Below are positions 11,966 to 61,137 of a stretch of 64,000 nucleotides of DNA, one piece after another. Made by a program: the position numbers and the translations under genes. The notes under the pieces were generated by a model. The model had not been told where the DNA came from and did no database searches. It saw only the letters and a list, made by a program, of their open reading frames with translations. Each line of letters begins with the position of its first letter. Positions within the stretch are counted from its first letter, which is position 1. This stretch comes from Heptranchias perlo (Eukaryota). Location of the stretch: positions 54,002,001 to 54,066,000 of the forward strand of contig NC_090326.1 in NCBI RefSeq assembly GCF_035084215.1, in the 5' to 3' direction.

Positions 11966-12752
11966 CATTCCAGATTATAACAACTTGCTGAGTAAAAAAA
12001 ATTCTCCTCATCTCCCCCTTGGATTAAGCATTTGTATGCAATACTTTAATGAAGACATTGACCCATTTATTTTAATACATCAATGCCTCTTTAAAAATAG
12101 TGGACAAAGGAACTGCATGAAGATACATGAAGTGTTCATGTGCTAATATTAGCATAGCGTAATTTCAAACTTGTTGACACTGGGCATAAACATTTGGGTT
12201 AGGTTAAAATTTGGATTTGGTGTCATCAATTAAAGTTAGTGAAAACATTGTTTCCATGTATCAGGAACTCCCCAGTAGACTACCAGTAACTGGATGACCC
12301 CAATAGATTCTACACATAATTGTTTTGGATTTTCTTTTAAAAATAATTTTTTAAAGGCATCTGAATCTGAGTATTAAAGGTCAGAAATTGAGGGCAGCAC
12401 AAGCCTGAAATTCCAATATGCACTGCTGATGGCAAAGCTCTCGATCGGCAGTACAGATTCATAAAATTATCCATTAAGCATGGTCCCAAAAATGATATGA
12501 AGGATCTCTATAACATATATTTTTTATTTGTTATTTTTATTTTTAGCTTTCTTCCCTATTTCTACTTATGTTTTCCCCACACAATCAAGTCCCAACTATT
12601 GTGCCCCCCTCTGAGTGTGGACACATTCCGAGGTCCAGTCCCGTTCAATCACTATGTCCAAACCATATGCCTCTCTGTCCAACTCTGCCTAACCCTTCCT
12701 CTCTGCCCTCCCCAGATTCCCTTCTTTGTTTTGCCCTCCCTCTCTACTGGAC

Positions 12753-13230
12753 CCAGCACTGACCCAACTAGATCCAGCATTGACCCAACTAGATCTAGCA
12801 CTGACCCAACTAGATCCAGCATTGACCCAACCAGATCTAGCACTGACCCAACTAGATCCAGCACTGACCCAACTAGATCCAGCACTGACCCAACTAGATC
12901 CAGCACTGACCCAACTAGATCCAGCACTGACCCAACTAGATCCAGCATTGACCCAACTAGATCTAGCACTGACCCAACTAGATCCAGCACTGACCCAACT
13001 AGATCCAGCACTGACCCAACTAGATCCAGCACTGACCCAACTAGATCCAGCACTGACCCAACTAGATCCAGCACTGACCCAACTAGATCCAGCACTGACC
13101 CAACTAGATCCAGCACTGACCCAACTAGATCCAGCACTGACCCAACTAGATCCAGCACTGACCCAACTAGATCCAGCACTGACCCAACTAGATCCAGCAC
13201 TGACCCAACTAGATCCAGCACTGACCCAAC
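12753..13230. repeat. 21-bp minisatellite (CCAGCACTGACCCAACTAGAT) x 22 units plus 16 bp
   Basis: Direct tandem array with few C>T variants; explains the overlapping repetitive ORFs at 12497-13271. Confidence 0.98.
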
Positions 13231-19744: not shown

Positions 19745-21687
19745 GTATGACAGATGTTGAGTTGATAATACAAGTGAGACACAGGCTGAATATAAAAAGT
19801 ACAGAGGAGAAGTGAAGAAGAAAATAAGAGGGGCAAAGAAAGAGTATGAGAATAGACTGGCAGCTAACATAAAAGGGAATCCAAAAGTCTTTTTTGGCCA
19901 TGCAAATAGCCATACAAAGAGGAGGGGTGGGGCCGATTAGGAACCAAAAAGATCTACGCGTGGATGCAGAGGGCATAGCTGAGGTACTAAATGAGTACTT
20001 TGCATCTGTCTTTACCAAGGAAGAAGATACTACTAAAGTCACAGTGGAAGGGTGGTAGTTGAGATAGTGGATGGGGTGAAAATTGATGGAGGTACTAGAA
20101 AGGCTGCTTATGCTTAAAGTAATTAAGTCACCTGGTCCAGATAGAATGCATCCTACGTTGCTGAGGGAAGTAAGGGTGGAAATTGCGGAGGTACTGGCCA
20201 TAATCTTCCAATCCTCCATAGATACGGGCGTGGTGCCAGAGGATTGGAAAATTGCAAATGTTGTACCCTTGTTCAAAACAGGCTATAAGGATAAACCCGG
20301 CAACTATAGGCCAGTTAGTTTAACCTCAGTAGTGGGGAAGCTTTCAGAAATGATAACCCAGGGCAAAATTAATAGTCACTTGGACAAGTGTGGATTAATA
20401 AAGGAAAGCCAACATGGATTTGTTAAAGGCAAATTATGTTTAACTAACTTGATTGAGTTTTTTGATGAGGTAAGAGAAAGGGTTGATGAGGGCAATGTGG
20501 TTGATGTTGTGTATATGGACTTTCAAAAGGCATTTGATAAAGTGCTACATAATAGGCTTGTCAGCAAAATTGAAGCCCATGGAATAAAAGGGATAGCGGC
20601 AGCATGGATACGAAATTAGCTAAGTGACAGAAAACAGAGTAGTGGTGAACGGTTGGTTTTCGGACTGGAGGAAGGTACACAGTGATGTTCCCCAGGGGTC
20701 AGTACTAGGTCCGCTGCTTTTTTGATATATATTAATGACTTGGACTTGGGTGTATAGGGCACAATTTCAAAATTTGCAGATGACACAAAACTTGGAAGTG
20801 TAGTGAACAGTGAGGAGGATAGTAAAAGACTTCAAGTGGACATAGACAGGCTGGTGGAATGGGCAGACACGTGGCCAATGAAATTTAATGCAGAGAAGTG
20901 CGAAGTGATACATTTCGGCAGGAAGAACGAGGAGAAGCAATATAAGCTAAATGGTACAATTCTAAAGTGGGTGCAGGAACAGGGACCTGGGGGTATATGT
21001 GCACAAATTTTTGAAGGTGTCAAGACAGGTTGAAAAAGCGGTTAAAAAAGCATACGGGATCCTGGACTTTATAAATAGAGGCACAGAGTATAAAAGCAAG
21101 GGAGTTATGTTGAACCTTTATAAAACACTGGTTTGGCCAAAACTGGAGTATTGTATCCAAATCTGGGCACTTCACTTTAGGAAAGATGTGAAGGCCTTAG
21201 AAAGGATGCAGAAAAGATTTACTAGAATGGTTTGAGGGATGAGGGACTTCAGTTATGTGGATAGATTGGAGAAGCTGGGGCTGTTCTCCTTGGAGCAGAG
21301 AAGGTTAAGAGGAGATTTGATAGAAGTGTTCAAAGTCATGACTGGTTTAGACAATGTAAATAAAGAAAAACTGTTCCCATTGGTGGAAGGGTCGAGAACC
21401 AGAGGACACAAATTTAAGGTGATTGGCAAAAGTACCAAAGGCAACGTGAGGAAAAACTTCTTTAAGCAGTGAGTAGTTATTATCTGGAATGCGCTGCCTG
21501 AAAGGGTGGTGGAAGCAGATTCAAACGTGGCTTTTATAAAGGAATTGGATAAATATTAGAAGGGAAAAAATTTGCAGGGCTACGGGGAAAGAGTGGGGGA
21601 ATGGGACTAACTGGATTGCTCTTACAAAGAGCTATCACAAGCTCGATGGGCCAAATGGCCTCCTTCTGTGCTGTGATTCTATGATTC
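19745..21687 (+). mobile_element. 5'-truncated CR1 LINE with disrupted RT ORF2
   Basis: ORF pieces 20083-20619, 20803-21033, 20999-21235, 21239-21472 with KSPGPD, NYRPVSLTS, DFQKAFD and FADD motifs; ATTCTATG tail. Confidence 0.95.
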
Positions 21688-29750: not shown

Positions 29751-31724
29751 CGAAGTAACATTAGGCAATGACCTACTTGACCTCGTCCTCAGCAATCTAC
29801 CTGTCACAGATGCATCTGTCCATGATGGTATTGTTAGGCGTGACCACAGCATTGTCCTTGTGAAGACCAACTTCTCCCTTCACACTGAGGACACCCTCGA
29901 TCATGTCATGTGGCACCACCACTGTGCTAAGTGGAATAGATGAGAACAGGTCTAACAGTTCAATACTGAGCATCTATGAGGTGCTATGGGCCATCATCAT
30001 CAGCAGCAGCAGAATTGTATTCCACCACAATTGATAACCTCATGGCAGAGCCCAACATGTGAGTGCAAAAGACAAGGCTGAAGCTTTTGCAACCACCTTC
30101 AGCCAGAAGTGCCGAGTGGATAATCCTTCCCAGCCTCCTCCTGAGCTAAGGCTGCACTACAGCGACTGCCAAACAGACCGTTACTTCTGAGGAAGCAAGA
30201 CAACAAGCTGATGGCCAGAGAATTTAATCGATTGAAATCCCTTCTGAGGTGTCACCGAGTCAAATTCCGAATTGCTTATTTCACGCACATATTTTGTTCC
30301 TAATGCAAGACCGATGTAAAGAATTGTTAAAAACAGAATGATCCTGGAAATCTGAGGTCCCCACCATCACAGATACCAGTCTTCAGCCAATTTGATTCTC
30401 TCCACATAATGTCAAGAAACGGCTGAGTGCACTGGACGCAGCAAAGGCTATGAGTCCTGATAACATCCCGGCTGTAGTGCTGAAGACCTGTGCTCCACAA
30501 CTAGTCGCGCCCCTAGCCAAGCTGTTCCAGTACATCTGCAACACTGGCATCTCCCCAAAAAAGTGAAAAACAGAATTAATACAACCAGCCAATTACCGTC
30601 CCATCAGTCTACTCTCAATCATCAGCAAGGTGATGGAAATAGTCATCAACAATGCTATCAAATGCCACTTATCACCAATAACCTGCTTACCGATGTTCAG
30701 TTTGGGTTCCACCAGGACCACTTGGCTCCAGACCTCATTACAGTCTTGGTCCAAAAATGGACACAAGAGCTGAATTCCAGAGATGAGATGAGAGTGACTG
30801 GCCTATACAGCAAGGCAACGTTTGGCTGAGTGTGGTACAAGGAGCCCGAGTAAAACTGAAGTCAATGGAGATCAGGGGGAAAACTCTCCAGTGGCTGGAG
30901 TCATACCTAGCACAAAGGAAGATGGTTGTGGTCATTGGAGGCCAATCATCTCAGCCCCAGCACATCGCTGCAGGAGTTCCTCAGAGCAGCATCCTAAGCC
31001 CAACTCTCTTCAGCTGCTTCAGTCAATGACCTTCCCTCCATCATAACGTCAGAAGTTCGCTGATGATTGCACAGTGTTCAGCTCCATTCGCAATTCCTCA
31101 AATAATGCCCGCATGCGGCATGACCTGGACAGCATCCAGGCTTGGCCAGATAAGTGGCAAATTACATTTACACAACACAAGTGCCAGGCAATGACCATCT
31201 CCAACATGACTGACCCTAACCACCTTCCCTTGACATTCAACCGAATTCCCCCACTATCAATATCCTGGGGTTCACAATTGACTAGAAACTCAACTGGATC
31301 AGCCGCATAAATGCCATGGCAACTGGACCTGGTCAGAGGCTGGGTATTCTGTGGCAAGTGGCTCACCTCTTGATGATCCAAGGCCTCTCCACTACCTACA
31401 AGACACCAGTCTGGAGTGTGATGGAAAAATCTCCACTTGCCTGGATGGATGCAGCTGCAACAGCACTCAAGATACTCGACATTATCCAAGATGTGGAGAT
31501 GCCGGTGATGGACTGGGGTTGACAATTGTAAACAATTTTACAACACCAAGTTATAGTCCAACAATTTTTATTTGAAATCTACAAGCTTTCGGAGGCTTCC
31601 TCCTTCCTCAGGTAAATGTTCAGGAGCTCCTCGAAGCCTACGCATTTATACATATAGAACAATACATGGTGTTTACAGACTGCCCCTGCAACTGCCCGTT
31701 GCCAAGGCAATCACCGTGTTCAGA

Positions 31725-31933
31725 TGTGGAGATGCCGGTGATGGACTGGGGTTCACAATTGTAAACAATTTTACAACACCAAGTTATAGTCCAACGATTT
31801 TATTTTTAATCCCACAAGCTTTCGGGGGCTTTCCCCTTCCTCAGGCGCCTGAGGAAGGGGAAAGCCCCCGAAAGCTTGTGGGATTAAAAATAAAATCGTT
31901 GGACTATAACTTGGTGTTGTAAAATTGTTTACA
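31725..31933 (-). mobile_element. Palindromic Penelope-type element nested in the outer copy
   Basis: 12-bp TSD ACCGTGTTCAGA (31713-31724, 31934-31945); perfect 176-bp palindrome 31759-31934 with no loop; same tail as the outer copy. Confidence 0.9.
31846..31882 (+). ncRNA. Minimal type I hammerhead ribozyme motif (mirror copy on - strand at about 31811-31847)
   Basis: CTGAGGA 31849-31855, stem II GGGG/CCCC, GAAA 31870-31873, then GC-TT; the 5' strand of stem I is shortened at the palindrome centre. Confidence 0.65.
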
Positions 31934-32137
31934 ACCGTGTTCAGACAGAGAGGTGTCACCTACAGAACCCCCGAATACACATTCAACAAAAAAATGTGTA
32001 TTCGGGGGTTCTGTAGGTGACACCTCTCTGTCTGAACATGGTGATTGCCTTGGCAACGGGCAGCTGCAGGGGCAGTCTGTAAACACCATGTATTGTTCTA
32101 TATGTATAAATGCGTAGGCTTCGAGGAGCTCCTGAAC

Positions 32138-32178
32138 ATTTACCTGAGGAAGGAGGAAGCCTCCGAAAGCTTGTAGAT
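32138..32178 (+). ncRNA. Minimal type I hammerhead ribozyme motif (mirror copy on - strand at about 31577-31617)
   Basis: ATTTAC-CTGAGGA-A-GGAGG aag CCTCC-GAAA-GC-TT-GTAGAT: core CUGANGA/GAAA/UH, stem I ATTTAC:GTAGAT, palindromic AGCT stem III. Confidence 0.8.
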
Positions 32179-33896
32179 TTCAAATAAAAATTGTTGGACT
32201 ATAACTTGGTGTTGTAAAATTGTTTACAATCGACATTATCCAAGACAAAGCAATCCGCTTGATAGGCACCTCACATTGAACCGTGGCTGCAGTGTGTACT
32301 AGCTACAGAATGCATTGCAGCAAGTTGCCAAGGCTTCTCTGACAGCACCTCCCAAATCTGTGACCTTCACCAGCTGCAAGAACAGTGACAGCAGGTGTAT
32401 GGGAATAACACCATCTCCAAGTTCCCCTCCAAGTCACAAACCATCCCGACTTGGACATATATCGCTGTTCCTTCTTCATCACTGGATCAAAATCTCTACC
32501 TAACAGCACTATGGGAGTACCATCACCACACGGACTGCAGCAGTTCAAGAAGCCAGCTCACCACCACCTTCTCAAGGACAATTAGGGATGGGCAATATAT
32601 GTTGGCTTTGCCAAGGATGCCCATATCCTGAGAATGAACATTAAAAACACATAAATGGATAAATTTGTAATTCAAATTAAATGTATAAATATGTTCGCAA
32701 ATTGATTTATAAATGGTAAATTCTAATTTGTTTAATTGTAAAGCATCCAAGTGGGCTGCAAATATATTTACTTTTATGCATAAATTAATCAAATTGGTTT
32801 AATAATTTAAAAAAATATTTATTCATTGACAAATTCATAAACAAATGTAAAACATAAGACCTCTGACTCCCTCTCACTTGGGTAATTTGTAATTACACAT
32901 CTTTCAATTTAACACCAACATAATTGGTAATTAAATTATATACTAACATATCAAAGTTAGGCAATATATTTCTGAATTAATGAGTACATTTAACATCATT
33001 TTAAAATTGATTAACATCTTTCTGAATTAATTCATACTTATATGAAATTAATACAATCAATAACTTGTTTGTGAATTAATTTGCAAATTTATTAATTCAT
33101 TTCAAATGTAATACATTTTGATTCTCCCTTACATCTGCTCTGGTAACTCCACTTTTACACCAGAGCTTCCGAAATCCCCTCCGAAGTGGTTAACAGAGCC
33201 CTTGGCCATTTCCCATGTTTCTCCTCGTCATTTTCCCCTCCTTTGACAACGGTGACAGGGTCTCCTCCTTGTTCTGACTTTCCACCCAGCAGCCTCTGCA
33301 TTTTCTAGATCATCTTCTGGCAATTCTGCCATGTTCGAAGAGGTCCTACCACCAGCCACTTCAGTCCCCTCCCCTCACACCCAGTACCTTACCTTTCAGT
33401 AGGATTGTTCTTTTCACAACATCCTAGTCCACTCTTCCAACATCCCAGCTATCAGCAGCTCTTTCCCTGGTCCCTTCCCGTACAACCACAGGAGATGCAA
33501 TACCTATCCATTCATCTTCTCCCATATCATTGTCCAGGGCCCCAAACACTCCTTCCATATTAGCCAGTAATTTATGAGAGCTTCCTCTAATCTAGTAAAT
33601 TGTATTTGTTGCTTATGGTGTGGTCTCCTCTACATTGGGGAGATCAAAGGCTTTTAGGGGACCGTTTTGCCAAATACCGTTGTTCGTGCCTATGTGTGTT
33701 GCTGATTTTCACGTGGCTCAGCATTTTAATTCCCACCTCCCATTCCTATTCTGACCTCTCCATCATTGACTTTTCATGGCCATTCCAAGGATGCTTAATG
33801 TAAAAGCAAAATAATGCGGTTGCTGGAAATATGAAATAAAACCAGAAAATGCTGGAAACACTCAGCAGGTCAGGCAGCATCTGTGGAGAGAGAAAC

Positions 33897-33935
33897 AGAG
33901 TTAACGTTTCAGGTCAATAACGTTTTCATCAGAAC
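33897..33935 (-). ncRNA. Hammerhead ribozyme motif of Penelope pseudo-LTR (second family)
   Basis: Reverse strand GTT-CTGATGA-AAACGTTATTGACCT-GAAA-CG-TT-AAC; stem II mutated. Confidence 0.55.
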
Positions 33936-34095
33936 GACATAGAATTACATAAAATTTGCAGCACAGAAATAGGCCATTTGGCCCAAGTGGTTCATACCGG
34001 TGTTTATGCTCCACACAAGACTCCTGCTACCCTTCTTCTTCTCACCCTATCCTTCTATTCCTTTCTCCGTCATGTGTTTATCTATCACATCTATC
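33936..34095 (-). mobile_element. CR1 3' tail inserted in the Penelope pseudo-LTR
   Basis: Matches the reverse complement of 29636-29750; flanked by CAGAAC (33930-33935, 34096-34101). Confidence 0.7.
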
Positions 34096-35732
34096 CAGAA
34101 CTGGAAGAAGTTAGAGATTTAACAGTTTTTAAACAAGTGGGATGGGGGAAAGGAAAGAACAAAAAGGAAGGTCTGTGATAGGGTGGCGGGCAGGAGTGAT
34201 TAAAGGCCAAAGGGATAATGGTGCAAGGCAAAAGGATAAGAAAAGAAACAAAAGATGGGTCCAGCGGAGGTGTAAATAGTTACAACGTAACCATTAACAA
34301 CACCTGCTGTCGGAGAAAATGGGAACGGTGGTTATGATTTAAAATTGTTGAACTCAAGGCTGTAAAGTGCCTAATCGAAAGATGAGATTCTGTTCCCCGA
34401 GTTTGTGTTGAGCTTCATTGGAACAGAGTTGAAGGGCGAGGACAGAGATGTCAGAGTGGGAGTGGAATGGAGAATTAAAATGAGAAACGACCGGAAGCTC
34501 AGGACCACGCTTGCAGACTGAATGGAGGTGTTCAGCAAAGCAATCACCCAATCTGCGTTTGTTCTCCCCAATGTAGAGGAGACCGCATCATGAGCAGCGA
34601 ATACAGTATACTAAATTGAAAGAAGAAGCAAGTCGTTTTTCACCTGGAAGGAGTGTTTGGGGCCCAGGACAGTGGGAAGAGAAGAGGTGAAAGGACAGGT
34701 GTTATATCTCTTGCGCTTGCACGGGAAGATGCCGGGGAAGGGGAGCAAGTGTTGGGGGCCATTGAAGAGTGAACCAGGGTGTCATAGAGGGAATGGTCCC
34801 TACAGAATGCTGACAGAGGAGGGGAGGGAAAGATGTGTTTGGTGGTGGCATCGGGCTGGAGGTGGCAGAAATGGCGAAGAATGATCTGGTTGAATGTGAA
34901 GGCTGGTGGAATGGAAAGTGAGGACAAGGGGAACCCTATAGAAGTTCTGGGAGGGAGGGGAAGTGGTGAGAAAAGTGTGGGAAATGGGATGGACACGGTT
35001 GAGGGCTCTGTCAATCACAATGAGGCGAATCCTTGGTTGAGGAAACAAGAAGATATATCAGTAAAGATGACATTTTCCAGTTCAGGGCGAGAACAGGAAG
35101 TGGCACCAACACCAACACAGTCACCAATGTACTGAAAAAAGAGGTGAGGGAGGGGACCTGAATAGGACTGGAACAAAGAATGTTCCACATACCCCATGAA
35201 AAGGCAGACATAGCTAGGACCCATATGGGTTCCCTTAGCAATACCTTTTATTTGGAAGAAGTGAGTGGAGTCAAAGGAGAAGTTGTCCAAAGTGAAAATA
35301 AGTTCAGCCAGGCGGAGGAGGGTGGCGGTCGATGGGGACTGGTTGGGCATGCCTTCAAGGAAGAAGATAGAAAAAGCTTAATGCAAAGCTGCAGGAATGG
35401 CACCAAATCTTTCTCTGGCCTGAACACTGACTTTAGTAACTTCAGTCCTTAGTTATATCCTTCATTTTCTTTGAGTGGACAAAGGGGGATGCAGGTGGGT
35501 GTTTGGCCTTATGACCTTCGTCAGAGCACAGTGCTGGCAGGGAGTCTGCCCCCCTGTTGCTCTGCTTTTTTCTCTTTTTCGAGTTGGCATTGAGCACTCC
35601 GAAGTCAGGTATGTGTTCAGTGAAATGCAGAGTAAAGTTCTCTCTACACTGTGCAAATGCTTTTTAAAACAAATCCAGCATCAGTACAGACCCTCCTATT
35701 AGATCAATACTAGAATTCATACCAAAATATAA

Positions 35733-35967
35733 TTGTAAACAATTTTACAACACCAAGTTATAGTCCAGCAATTTTATTTTAAATTCACAAGCTTTCGGAG
35801 GCTTCCCCCTTCCTCAGGTGAACGATGTGAACATCGTTCACCTGAGGAAGGGGGAAGCCTCCGAAAGCTTGTGAATTTAAAATAAAATTGCTGGACTATA
35901 ACTTGGTGTTGTAAAATTGTTTACAATTGTCAACCCCAGTCCATCACCGGCATCTCCACATCATGAC
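35733..35967 (+). mobile_element. Palindromic Penelope-type element, third copy, opposite orientation
   Basis: 13-bp TSD TACCAAAATATAA (35720-35732, 35968-35980); perfect 98-bp arms (35731-35828, 35831-35928), 2-nt loop, 39-nt tail on the right. Confidence 0.92.
35836..35876 (+). ncRNA. Minimal type I hammerhead ribozyme motif (mirror copy on - strand at about 35783-35823)
   Basis: GTTCAC-CTGAGGA-A-GGGGG aag CCTCC-GAAA-GC-TT-GTGAAT; stem I covaries relative to the 32138 copy. Confidence 0.8.
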
Positions 35968-36849
35968 TACCAAAATATAAGCATTTTCTTACTGTGGATA
36001 TATTCAGTTAGAACTGGTTGGGTGATATCCAAACTGATTTTTCTTGTGATCATTCCAGCCAGCTGAGAGAACGTTTTCATGCCATCTGTTTGAGCTAGCT
36101 TTGAACCGACATCCCAGACCAACAGTACACGTATGAACCCACTATTGCACAGTTCTCATCCTCCTCCCCACATTGTGCCATTGATTTAAGTTTTGCATTG
36201 CCTGTTGAGCAGCAGACTTCAGGATAAATGCAAGGGCATGAAAGAAAAAACAAACCATTTCACTACAGTATCGAGCTTTAGAAAACATTTATTGGCTTCT
36301 GGGTACTTATATTTTTGTTATTTAGTCTGAATTGCATATATTATTAAAGGATATTCAACTTAAATATATAAATAGTTGAATCTTCTATTGTGTTGCTGAG
36401 GGTAAGGGCAAATAAAGAATTATTTATAAGGAAGTGGAGATGGTATGGTGATGGGGGTGGGAAGTACATAGAAATACATAGAAGTTACAACATCGCAATT
36501 GGCCATTTGGCCCAAGCATCCCGTGTCATTCCCAGATGGCTGCAATCACTTGTTTAATTCTTGACTGCTGTACTCTTTCCAAAGCCCACTGGAATGTATT
36601 AATGGCAGATTGATGTATTAGTTTAATATGTGGCTGAAAAACTCCCTCCAAAGCCTGAATATATATGCGGCATACTTATTTATGTAGTTCACACCTGAAG
36701 CTCAACTTGTCCCAAAGCCCAAGTTAATTTATTTAGGCCGTGGTTATTCATTTAATTCCCAGCTGGCCTGCTCCCCACAAAGTGCAATTAAATTTGTCCC
36801 AAAATTAAAAGTTTAATTCTTCCTAAATTTAATTTTTTAAATATTAGAT

Positions 36850-38280: not shown

Positions 38281-38378
38281 CTGATGAAGGGTCATCAACC
38301 TGAAACGTTAACTCTGTTTCTCTCTCCAAAGATGCTACCTGATCTGCTGAGTATTTCCAGCATTTTCTGTTTTTATTA
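38281..38378 (+). mobile_element. Penelope pseudo-LTR fragment beginning at hammerhead core
   Basis: CTGATGA-AGGGTCATCAACCT-GAAA-CG-TT-AACTCTGTTTCTCTCTCC... Confidence 0.75.
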
Positions 38379-58735: not shown

Positions 58736-59644
58736 ACAATAAATACTTACAACAGAATAGATGGATATGGACAAAACATTTTAATTTAACATGCTTGCCT
58801 TTAACAGCATTGATTCTACCTGTATTGACAATGAATACATTCAGACTTGTGCCCTCTTTGTATTGTCAACTCCACATGATTGTATTTGTTTTGGGTCAAG
58901 ATGGTTCGAGCTGAATGTGATCTCTTAGGATTTATACTGACAGATGCCCCCGACTCAGATTATGCGTTGAAAGGTATTCAATTACCGACTCAATGTTTGT
59001 TTTGACAGCTTTTTCCTAGGTTACACTTGTATAGAGATTCACATCAGGCTCTTTATACCAGTCTGATGTGAATCTGACTTTTAGTGCAGGGTGAGGCATT
59101 GTGAGAGTTTTTAATCTGTTCTGTGGAGTAGATAACTGAGCACCATTTATGTTGGATTTACTGAAGTGCATTAGCTACCAATTTGCAGCTGCAGTTTAAA
59201 TGGGGCTCAGGGAAGGTTTTCACAGATCATGGTATTTGCTTTTGCTTAGATCGAGTTTGTAAATGTTTAGATTTGCTTGTATTTTCATGCTGGACTTTTC
59301 AAAGAAAAGAAGCAATTAACAAAGTGTTTGACAAGAGGCACACACCACGTTTAACACATACAAACAAAGGTGGACATCAAGGGGGTAAAATTACTGAAAA
59401 GTTAATCTGTTTTTTTTTCTTTTTTATTGCATTACCAGCAAATGCACAACTTTACTTTCGGCATTTGTTGGAAGCTCAGATATGTTCGGGTAAGCTAAAA
59501 TTACCCCACAACTGAGTGGCCAATCAGAAAGCAGCTGAAATGACACTCCTCAACCAGCTAAACCAATGTAGAAATGGTATAAATCAAGCATTGTCTGTCA
59601 ATCAAGCTGTGAGTTCACATTTCTTGAGTGAAATGGTTAAAAAT

Positions 59645-61137
59645 ATTGGTTGGAAAATTGGGCAGGCTGCATAACAGGTGCACACTTCAAGAAGGGAGGG
59701 AAAGAGAAAACAGGGAACTACAGGCCAGTTAGCCTGACATCGGTCGTCGGGAAAATGCTGGAATCCATTATTAATGAAGTGGTAACAGGGCACTTAAAAA
59801 ATCATAACATGATTAGGCAGAGTCAACATAGTTCTATGAAAGGAAAATCGTGTTCGACAAATTTATTAGAGTTTTTTGAGGATATAACTGGCAGGGTAAA
59901 TAAAGGGGAACCAATGGATGTAATATATTTGGATTTTCAAAAGACATTCAATAAGGTGCCACATAAAAGGTTGTTACACAAGATAAGGGCTCATGGGGTT
60001 GGGGGTAATATATTAGCATGGATAGAAAATTGGTTAAAGGTCAGAAAACAGAGAGTAGGGATAAATGGATCATTCTCAGTGGGGTGCTGTAACTCTCAGT
60101 GAGGTGGGGTAACTAGTGGGGTGCTGCAAGGATCGGTGCTTGGGCCTCAGCTATTTACAATCTATATTAGTGACTTAGATGAAGGGACCAAGTGTAATGT
60201 ATCCAAGTTTGCTGATGATACAAAACTAGGTGGGAAAGTAAGCTGTGAGGAGGACACAAAGAGCCTGCAAAGGGATATAGACAGGTTAAGTGAGTGGGCA
60301 AGAAGGTGGCAGACGGAGTATAATGTGGGGAAATGTGAGGTTATTCAATTTGGTAGGAAGAATAGAAAAACAGAATATTTTCAAAATGGGGAGAAGCTAT
60401 TGAATGTTGGTGTTCAGGGAGACTTTGGTGTCCTCGTACAAGAAACACAAAAAGATAGTATGCAGGTAGAGCAGGCAATTAGGAAAGCAGATGGCATGTT
60501 GGCCTTTATTGCAAGGGGGTTGGAGTACAAGACTAAGGAAGTCTTACTACAGTTGTACAGGGCCTTAGTGAGACCTCACCTGGAGTACTACGTACTGTTT
60601 TGGTCTCCTTATCTAAGGAAGGATATACTTGTCTTGGAGACAGTGCAACAAATCACTGGATTAATTCCTGGGATGAGAGGGTTGTCCTATGAAGAGAGGA
60701 TGAGTAGAATGGGCCTATACTCTCTGGAGTTTAGAAGAATGAGAGGTGATCTCATTGAAACATATAAGATTATGAGGGGACTTGACAGGGTAGATGCTGA
60801 AAGATTATTTCCCCTGGCTATAGAGTCTAGAGGGGGCATAGTCGCAGGATGAGGGGTCAGCCGTTCAAGACTGAGATGTGGAGGAATTTCTTCATGCAGA
60901 GAGTTGTGAATCTTTGGAATTCTCTACCCCAGAGGGCTGTAGATGCTAAGACATTGAATATATTCAAGGCTGAGAGAGATAGATTTTTGTACTCCAGGGG
61001 AATCAAGGGATATGGGGATCGGGCGGGAAAGTGGAGTTGAGGTCGAAGATCAGCCATGATCTTATTGAATGACGGAGCAGTCTCGAGGGGACGATGGCCT
61101 ACTCCTGCTCCTATTTCTTATGTTCTTATGTTCTATG
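59645..61137 (+). mobile_element. 5'-truncated CR1 LINE with disrupted RT
   Basis: ORFs 59650-60102, 60121-60852 (QGSVLGP, FADDTKL) and 60849-61040; TTCTTATG tail. Confidence 0.95.

Follow-up and report, generated by a model that had tools for sequence, protein, structure and literature searches.

Minimal hammerhead motifs in inverted Penelope-like insertions, with base-pair-preserving stem changes too few to prove selection

In the window, that is, the whole stretch of 64,000 nucleotides analysed here, hammerhead-like motifs recur in copies that share a core and differ in their stems. The locus thus raises the question of whether these differences are compensatory changes that preserve a ribozyme fold under selection, what kind of element brought the motifs here, and whether the genomic copies can cut RNA. 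A reading made from the sequence only had answered the first question in the affirmative and had predicted three cleavage sites.

A pattern scan of both strands of the window yielded four complete minimal hammerheads, at 32144 (+), 35842 (+), 35817 (-) and 31611 (-), and two more arms, at 31849 (+) and its mirror, in which the core is present and a full stem I is absent. When stem I was not required, the combination of the core, a stem II of at least 4 bp and a palindromic loop was found seven times, compared with a mean of 0.003 (maximum 1) in the 300 dinucleotide-matched random sequences that served as the chance baseline. The six arms, referred to here as family 1, belong to three insertions, A, B and C. 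All six carry CTGAGGA followed by one unpaired A, stem II and GAAA-GC-TT, and all six conform to the consensus core CUGANGA ... GAAA ... UH; the unpaired base between positions 9 and 10.1 and the G10.1-C11.1 pair are present in each of the three insertions. Stem III is A-GC-U, palindromic at 15.2-16.2 and unable to close alone, as the sequence-only reading had described it. That reading had also quoted the stems of A and C correctly: A has ATTTAC:GTAGAT as stem I and GGAGG:CCTCC as stem II, and C has GTTCAC:GTGAAT and GGGGG:CCTCC, respectively. Its rendering of stem II in B as GGGG:CCCC, however, hides a mismatch, since the full stem reads GGGGA:CCCCC and the fifth pair is A.C; furthermore, the 5' arm of stem I in B is cut off by the inversion, leaving three pairs. 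The three sites that it had predicted, 31877 (B), 32172 (A) and 35870 (C), all coincide with position 17 of the plus-strand arms. The evidence thus supports assigning the family-1 motifs to the Penelope kind of minimal type I hammerhead, in which stem III is palindromic. None of the 14 matches to Rfam covariance models at E up to 5 was a hammerhead; microRNA-like hairpin matches in the same search were rejected as palindrome artefacts below the gathering score. The complete motifs are the following.

31577..31617, minus strand: minimal hammerhead of A, predicted site after 31583
32138..32178, plus strand: minimal hammerhead of A, with a 6-bp stem I, a 5-bp stem II and a palindromic stem III, predicted site after 32172
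35783-35823, minus strand: hammerhead in the left arm of C, predicted site after 35789
35836..35876, plus strand: minimal hammerhead of C, predicted site after 35870

It should be noted that the six arms represent only three independent insertions: A, spanning 31490-32230, B, which is nested in A, and C, spanning 35731-35967. Every insertion is a head-to-head inverted pair whose arms are nearly identical (differences at 2 of 200, 1 of 89 and 1 of 99 positions). The same 36-nt tail is found on one arm only in all three, and each insertion has a TSD, so that the combination of an inverted pLTR, a one-sided tail of 30-40 nt and a TSD is seen in three out of three cases.

31490..31724, resuming at 31946-31983 after the nested B, minus strand: left arm of A, with the 36-nt tail at 31490-31525
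31993..32230, plus strand: right arm of A, no tail
31476..31491, repeated at 32230-32245, plus strand: TSD of A, 16 bp
31723..31846, minus strand: left arm of B, with the 36-nt tail at 31723-31758; the hammerhead is truncated 2 nt upstream of C3
31847..31933, plus strand: right arm of B, no tail; core from 31849, position 17 at 31877
31713..31724, repeated at 31934-31945, plus strand: TSD of B, 12 bp, inside insertion A
35731..35829, minus strand: left arm of C, no tail
35830..35967, plus strand: right arm of C, with the 36-nt tail at 35927-35962, then five bases starting with ATG
35720..35732, repeated at 35968-35980, plus strand: TSD of C, 13 bp

Insertion A lies in a repeat copy related to one near 45300-45650, and in an uninterrupted copy of this host repeat, near 45460-45643, the duplicated stretch is present once. 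The window contains neither a family-1 ORF nor a longer family-1 copy, and the identification of family 1 as a Penelope-like element (PLE) is therefore a structural one. Relatives of the element were sought in viral, metagenome and prokaryote-genome collections, where seven loci matched the short pattern only (viral, 1; metagenome, 5; prokaryote genomes, 1; another viral scan, 0); these were dropped as chance matches, as the similarity ended with the pattern itself.

The class of motif is well established. In the sections of their article consulted, Cervera and de la Pena (2014; PMC4209133) define the min-HHR in pLTRs of metazoan Penelope-like elements, present within-family covariation and compensatory change as a general feature of these ribozymes and note inverted pairs. 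The turtle row of their alignment carries the same A-GC-U stem III as family 1, whereas family 1 itself is absent from the alignment rows compared; it further differs from the min-HHR as described in those sections in its 6-bp stem I and in that no ORF accompanies it in the window. According to the relevant passages of PMC3846280 and PMC8557442, PLE insertions consist of an inverted 5'-truncated pLTR with an optional tail of 30-40 bp and a short TSD. The family-1 copies resemble them in the head-to-head arms, the one-arm 36-nt tail, the TSD and the insertion into an existing copy, but their TSDs, at 12-16 bp, are longer than the 8-10 bp given there for rotifer PLEs, and only pLTR pieces are present. 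For the Poseidon element of Anolis, the portion of PMC11167929 used here explains the tail by two internal RT start sites, and reports that unprocessed RNA is the main substrate and that cleavage is protein-assisted and dispensable for insertion in vitro. All three family-1 insertions run across the predicted site, and their templates must therefore have been uncut at that position, as expected for an unprocessed RNA template of the Poseidon kind. What the hammerhead does for Penelope-like elements is called unclear in the part of PMC8557442 consulted, and the dimer model, together with insertion into existing copies, is covered in the corresponding part of the review PMC6765202.

To place the three insertions within the family at large, contigs of four of 15 public runs (X4, X5, X9 and X10) were compared over positions 31475-31724 (250 bp). 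Runs X4 and X5 derive from one sample, possibly that from which the window comes, whereas X9 and X10 come from other organisms and contribute 21 contigs each; all these data are contigs, unphased and biased towards the reference. As many as 15369 contigs of X4 map to this stretch, indicating that family 1 is highly repeated. None of the 15 fixed core and stem III positions varies at 3% or more. The sequence-only reading had held the core to be invariant, which is true of the six arms in the window but does not extend beyond it: position 7 (N7), the sole variable core position in all four runs, is C in 31.5% of the X4 depth. Position 7 of the hammerhead is a freely variable one. Four of the six positions of the stem I 3' arm vary, as do 9 of 51 in the downstream spacer (core versus spacer, p 0.08), and much of the non-ribozyme sequence is as invariant as the core in these contigs. 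Among the loose ends listed, the C-type 5' arm of stem I occurs in 82 X4 and 16 X5 contigs, and the C-type stem I thus represents a subfamily; the alternative origin of this arm, as an artefact created at the inversion junction, was rejected on the same grounds. A third type, with G at position 2 of stem I and A at position 5 of stem II, is present among the listed loose ends of X4, X5 and X10.

Several further observations concern the same stretch. The five bases that follow the tail of C (35963-35967), before the TSD, start with ATG, and the loose-end consensus at the tail end 31490, to which 91 X4 contigs contribute, also reads ATG on the sense strand, with an overall agreement of only 0.37; judging from its place directly after the tail, this ATG is a candidate start codon of a family-1 ORF. 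In a single X4 contig (depth 21.7), 31613 is followed, after one intervening base, by 31583, where cleavage is predicted, a joint that microhomology could explain. The antisense of the core and stem I, at 31609-31617 (+) in A and 35816-35824 (+) in C, resembles the consensus of a spliceosomal 5' splice site, a likeness that follows from the ribozyme sequence; no canonical spliced joint at this stretch was found among the run-contig joints over 31475-31724.

We are confident that the family-1 copies are three short 5'-truncated inverted pLTR insertions of one high-copy Penelope-like family, and the following account is offered at that same level as a whole. The pLTR carries a minimal type I hammerhead, and the active source elements, to judge from the literature rather than from the window, would be arranged in partial tandems, in which two motifs would pair via their palindromic stem III, so that cleavage after position 17 could follow, probably with the help of a protein. 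The source subfamilies would have drifted in stems I and II while keeping both the pairing and the catalytic core, which the data bear out in part. Each insertion copied the RNA of one subfamily across the uncut site and inverted it, with the 36-nt tail left on one arm, as the three insertions display, and the resulting genomic copies would be inert, each motif being locked, according to the fold computations, in a long hairpin with its antisense arm in read-through RNA. We favour this explanation because the motif occurs far above chance and fits the consensus of PMC4209133, and because the inverted arms, the TSD and the tail match the structure of PLE insertions.

The strongest competitor, although we regard it as rather unlikely, is that family 1 includes a non-autonomous mini-element of about 125-135 nt, composed of hammerhead plus tail, whose 5' boundary would be fixed immediately before stem I and which would be related to retrozymes, in place of random 5' truncations of a full PLE. 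Two insertions would fit such a unit, as B and C begin 2 and 12 nt upstream of the core, and so would the run contigs: their depth drops upstream of 31610, and the contigs with the C-type loose end share about 10 letters before they diverge (agreement 0.5). Insertion A, however, continues for approximately 150 nt upstream of the core, and the same picture would arise from contigs that end within a repeat graph or from the pooling of subfamilies. As far as the text of a recent preprint on animal non-LTR retrozymes goes (bioRxiv 10.64898/2026.07.22.740005), these are likewise short, non-coding units derived from PLEs that carry a type I hammerhead, but they form head-to-tail tandem units, whereas the family-1 copies are inverted pairs. 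No array of two or more head-to-tail units with a complete hammerhead was found in the window, and none of its six tandem arrays covers a family-1 copy.

Within the preferred explanation, the weight of the paired stem changes has to be judged against drift. According to this second alternative, which we likewise hold to be rather unlikely, the covariation is only apparent: the motif would derive from PLE ancestry, recent subfamilies would differ by transitions that happen to be tolerated through G.U pairing and by an indel upstream of the core, and the fold would be under no current selection. Two-sided changes occur in 2 of 11 pairs among the three sequences (U:A/C:G in stem I; A:U/G:U/G:C in stem II), a count that was reached in 105 of 500 shuffles and is therefore not significant. 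Between A and C, the stems differ at 5 of 22 bases and the core at 0 of 16 (Fisher p 0.052). All five differences are transitions, and five random changes keep all 11 pairs in 10-12% of simulations if all are transitions, and in 1.6-1.9% at 67% transitions. B breaks pair 5 of stem II and three pairs of stem I, and the alignment of A and C has a 3-nt gap upstream, so that something other than a point mutation may underlie the difference in stem I. Against drift, three separate two-sided changes are seen across the window and the runs, N7 alone varies in the core in all four runs, and controls in which the structure was slid along the sequence pair at 29-52%, compared with 88% in the given structure, although this control is biased towards the latter. 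One X10 contig, from another organism, has both halves of G:C changed to A:U at stem II pair 5, as read by eye from the loose-end consensus. In none of the four runs do the stem II variants of B and C appear among those at 3% or more, and a stem I variant at 31578, present at 15.5% in X4, would break a pair unless accompanied by a 1-nt deletion nearby or compensated elsewhere, the contigs being unphased. The two arms of an inverted pair always share their variant, which places the variants in the source RNA before insertion, unless the arms were converted later.

The claim of the sequence-only reading that compensatory changes preserve the fold thus stands in that two pairs do change on both sides, and falls short in that 105 of 500 shuffles reach as much and that one copy breaks a pair. 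The pair-preserving changes do exist, but their number is too small for selection to be proved. That the structure was under selection in the source elements, the further claim of that reading, is likely and has already been reported for the class, although it is not demonstrated statistically by these three insertions.

As for the genomic copies themselves, the 41-mers of A and C, when folded in isolation, form both stem I and stem II (pair probabilities 0.61-1.0), and that of B folds without stem I, so that both stems form in two of the three insertions. In read-through RNA of either strand, by contrast, the pair probability of stems I and II is 0.000 in all four folds, because each motif is preceded by its own antisense arm. 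When folding was started at the centre of A, the probabilities of stems I and II reached 0.06 and 0.15. Two monomers are favoured over a two-molecule double hammerhead with the 4-bp stem by about 1 kcal/mol, and the latter lies about 9 above the cofold minimum; the dimer fold is possible but not favoured, as far as the energy model goes, all fold computations being equilibrium energy models without protein. Thus, the prediction that the plus-strand copies cleave after 31877, 32172 and 35870 is not supported for RNA transcribed through them, the more so for B with its defective stem I, and on these models the genomic copies are most likely inert relics. That nested B and A act instead as active ribozymes, cutting host transcripts as a dimer, which the sites predicted in the sequence-only reading would imply, is highly improbable. 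In its favour, the two motifs share a strand at a spacing of 295 nt (+) and 233 nt (-), and A and C have kept the complete motif. Against it stand the read-through folds, the loss of the stem I 5' arm in B, and a fold begun at the centre of B, in which the B-A stem III pairs still reach only 0.06 and the cross stem I stays at 0.000.

A second Penelope-like family, family 2, is represented in the window by decayed copies, for which the sequence-only reading had proposed the same layout with A-CG-T at 33897 and 38281.

34357..35377, minus strand: decayed Penelope-like ORF, with an RT-like piece (35018-35377), a Cys linker remnant and a GIY-YIG piece (34357-34701)
33897..33932, minus strand: hammerhead downstream of the ORF, retaining the core and A-CG-T, with a decayed stem II and a repeat (about 33935-34096) that interrupts the 5' arm of stem I
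38281..38314, plus strand: solo hammerhead with core, 4-bp stem II and A-CG-T; stem I 5' arm absent

The proposal holds for the core and the A-CG-T, which both copies have kept, yet both are damaged, and the copy at 38281 has a G.U at 10.1-11.1. Of four family-2 hammerhead copies, two retain the core with A-CG-T, the other two have damaged cores and none is complete. The ORF is broken by stops and frameshifts; Pfam scans of its pieces gave no hit, whereas atlas look-alikes pointed to GIY-YIG (0.95; 15-26% of cluster members carry the family) and RVT_1 (0.93; 48%). An RT-like piece with a C-terminal GIY-YIG piece lies upstream of a hammerhead on the same strand, and C-x4-C-x2-C linker remnants are found in two decayed copies. 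These linker cysteines, read by eye, suggest that family 2 is of the Neptune type, which it resembles in the RT-like piece, the linker remnants, the C-terminal GIY-YIG and the downstream hammerhead; it differs in its broken ORF, and the clade was read from motifs by eye rather than from a tree. Two decayed family-2 ORF ends, at 33250-33800 (+) and 34300-35377 (-), face each other with 67% identity, the hammerhead-bearing pLTR lying between them. The short repeat at 33935-34096, which has at least seven relatives in the window, interrupts this pLTR just upstream of the core and is accompanied by a 6-bp duplication.

Other repeats were noted elsewhere in the window. An imperfect inverted repeat at 38562-38736, with 79-nt arms that are 75% complementary and 17 nt apart, is MITE-like. 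A 21-bp tandem repeat at 12746-13230 (23 copies, 96% matches) is open in several frames, and the match of its 290-aa frame to the Pfam herpesvirus gp350 family is probably a low-complexity artefact. Broken reverse-transcriptase ORFs at 20080-20616, 45835-46428, 47710-49833 and 59641-60849, with Pfam RVT_1 in 6 of 22 frames scanned, are probably LINEs.

The family-1 sequence is probably undescribed: no description of it was found in the papers searched on hammerheads, Penelope and sharks, and shark names are absent from two of the three supplementary files. The repeats may resemble those of cartilaginous fishes. The retrozyme preprint (bioRxiv 10.64898/2026.07.22.740005), in the part consulted, includes one chondrichthyan genome and may contain related sequences. 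The locus thus adds one more host and one more sequence family to the known association of hammerheads with Penelope-like elements, and changes no model. A young high-copy family with several stem variants is nevertheless good material for a covariation test, for which three insertions are insufficient. We consider it unlikely, if worth stating, that selection still acts on the fold today in several subfamilies active side by side, despite the uncut templates, and that many copies are mini-elements of hammerhead plus tail that start right at stem I and end at the candidate ATG. If this were true, the young copies would amount to a natural mutational scan for the transposition step that the ribozyme serves, and such a scan could show whether the stem III palindrome, and with it the dimer model, is selected.
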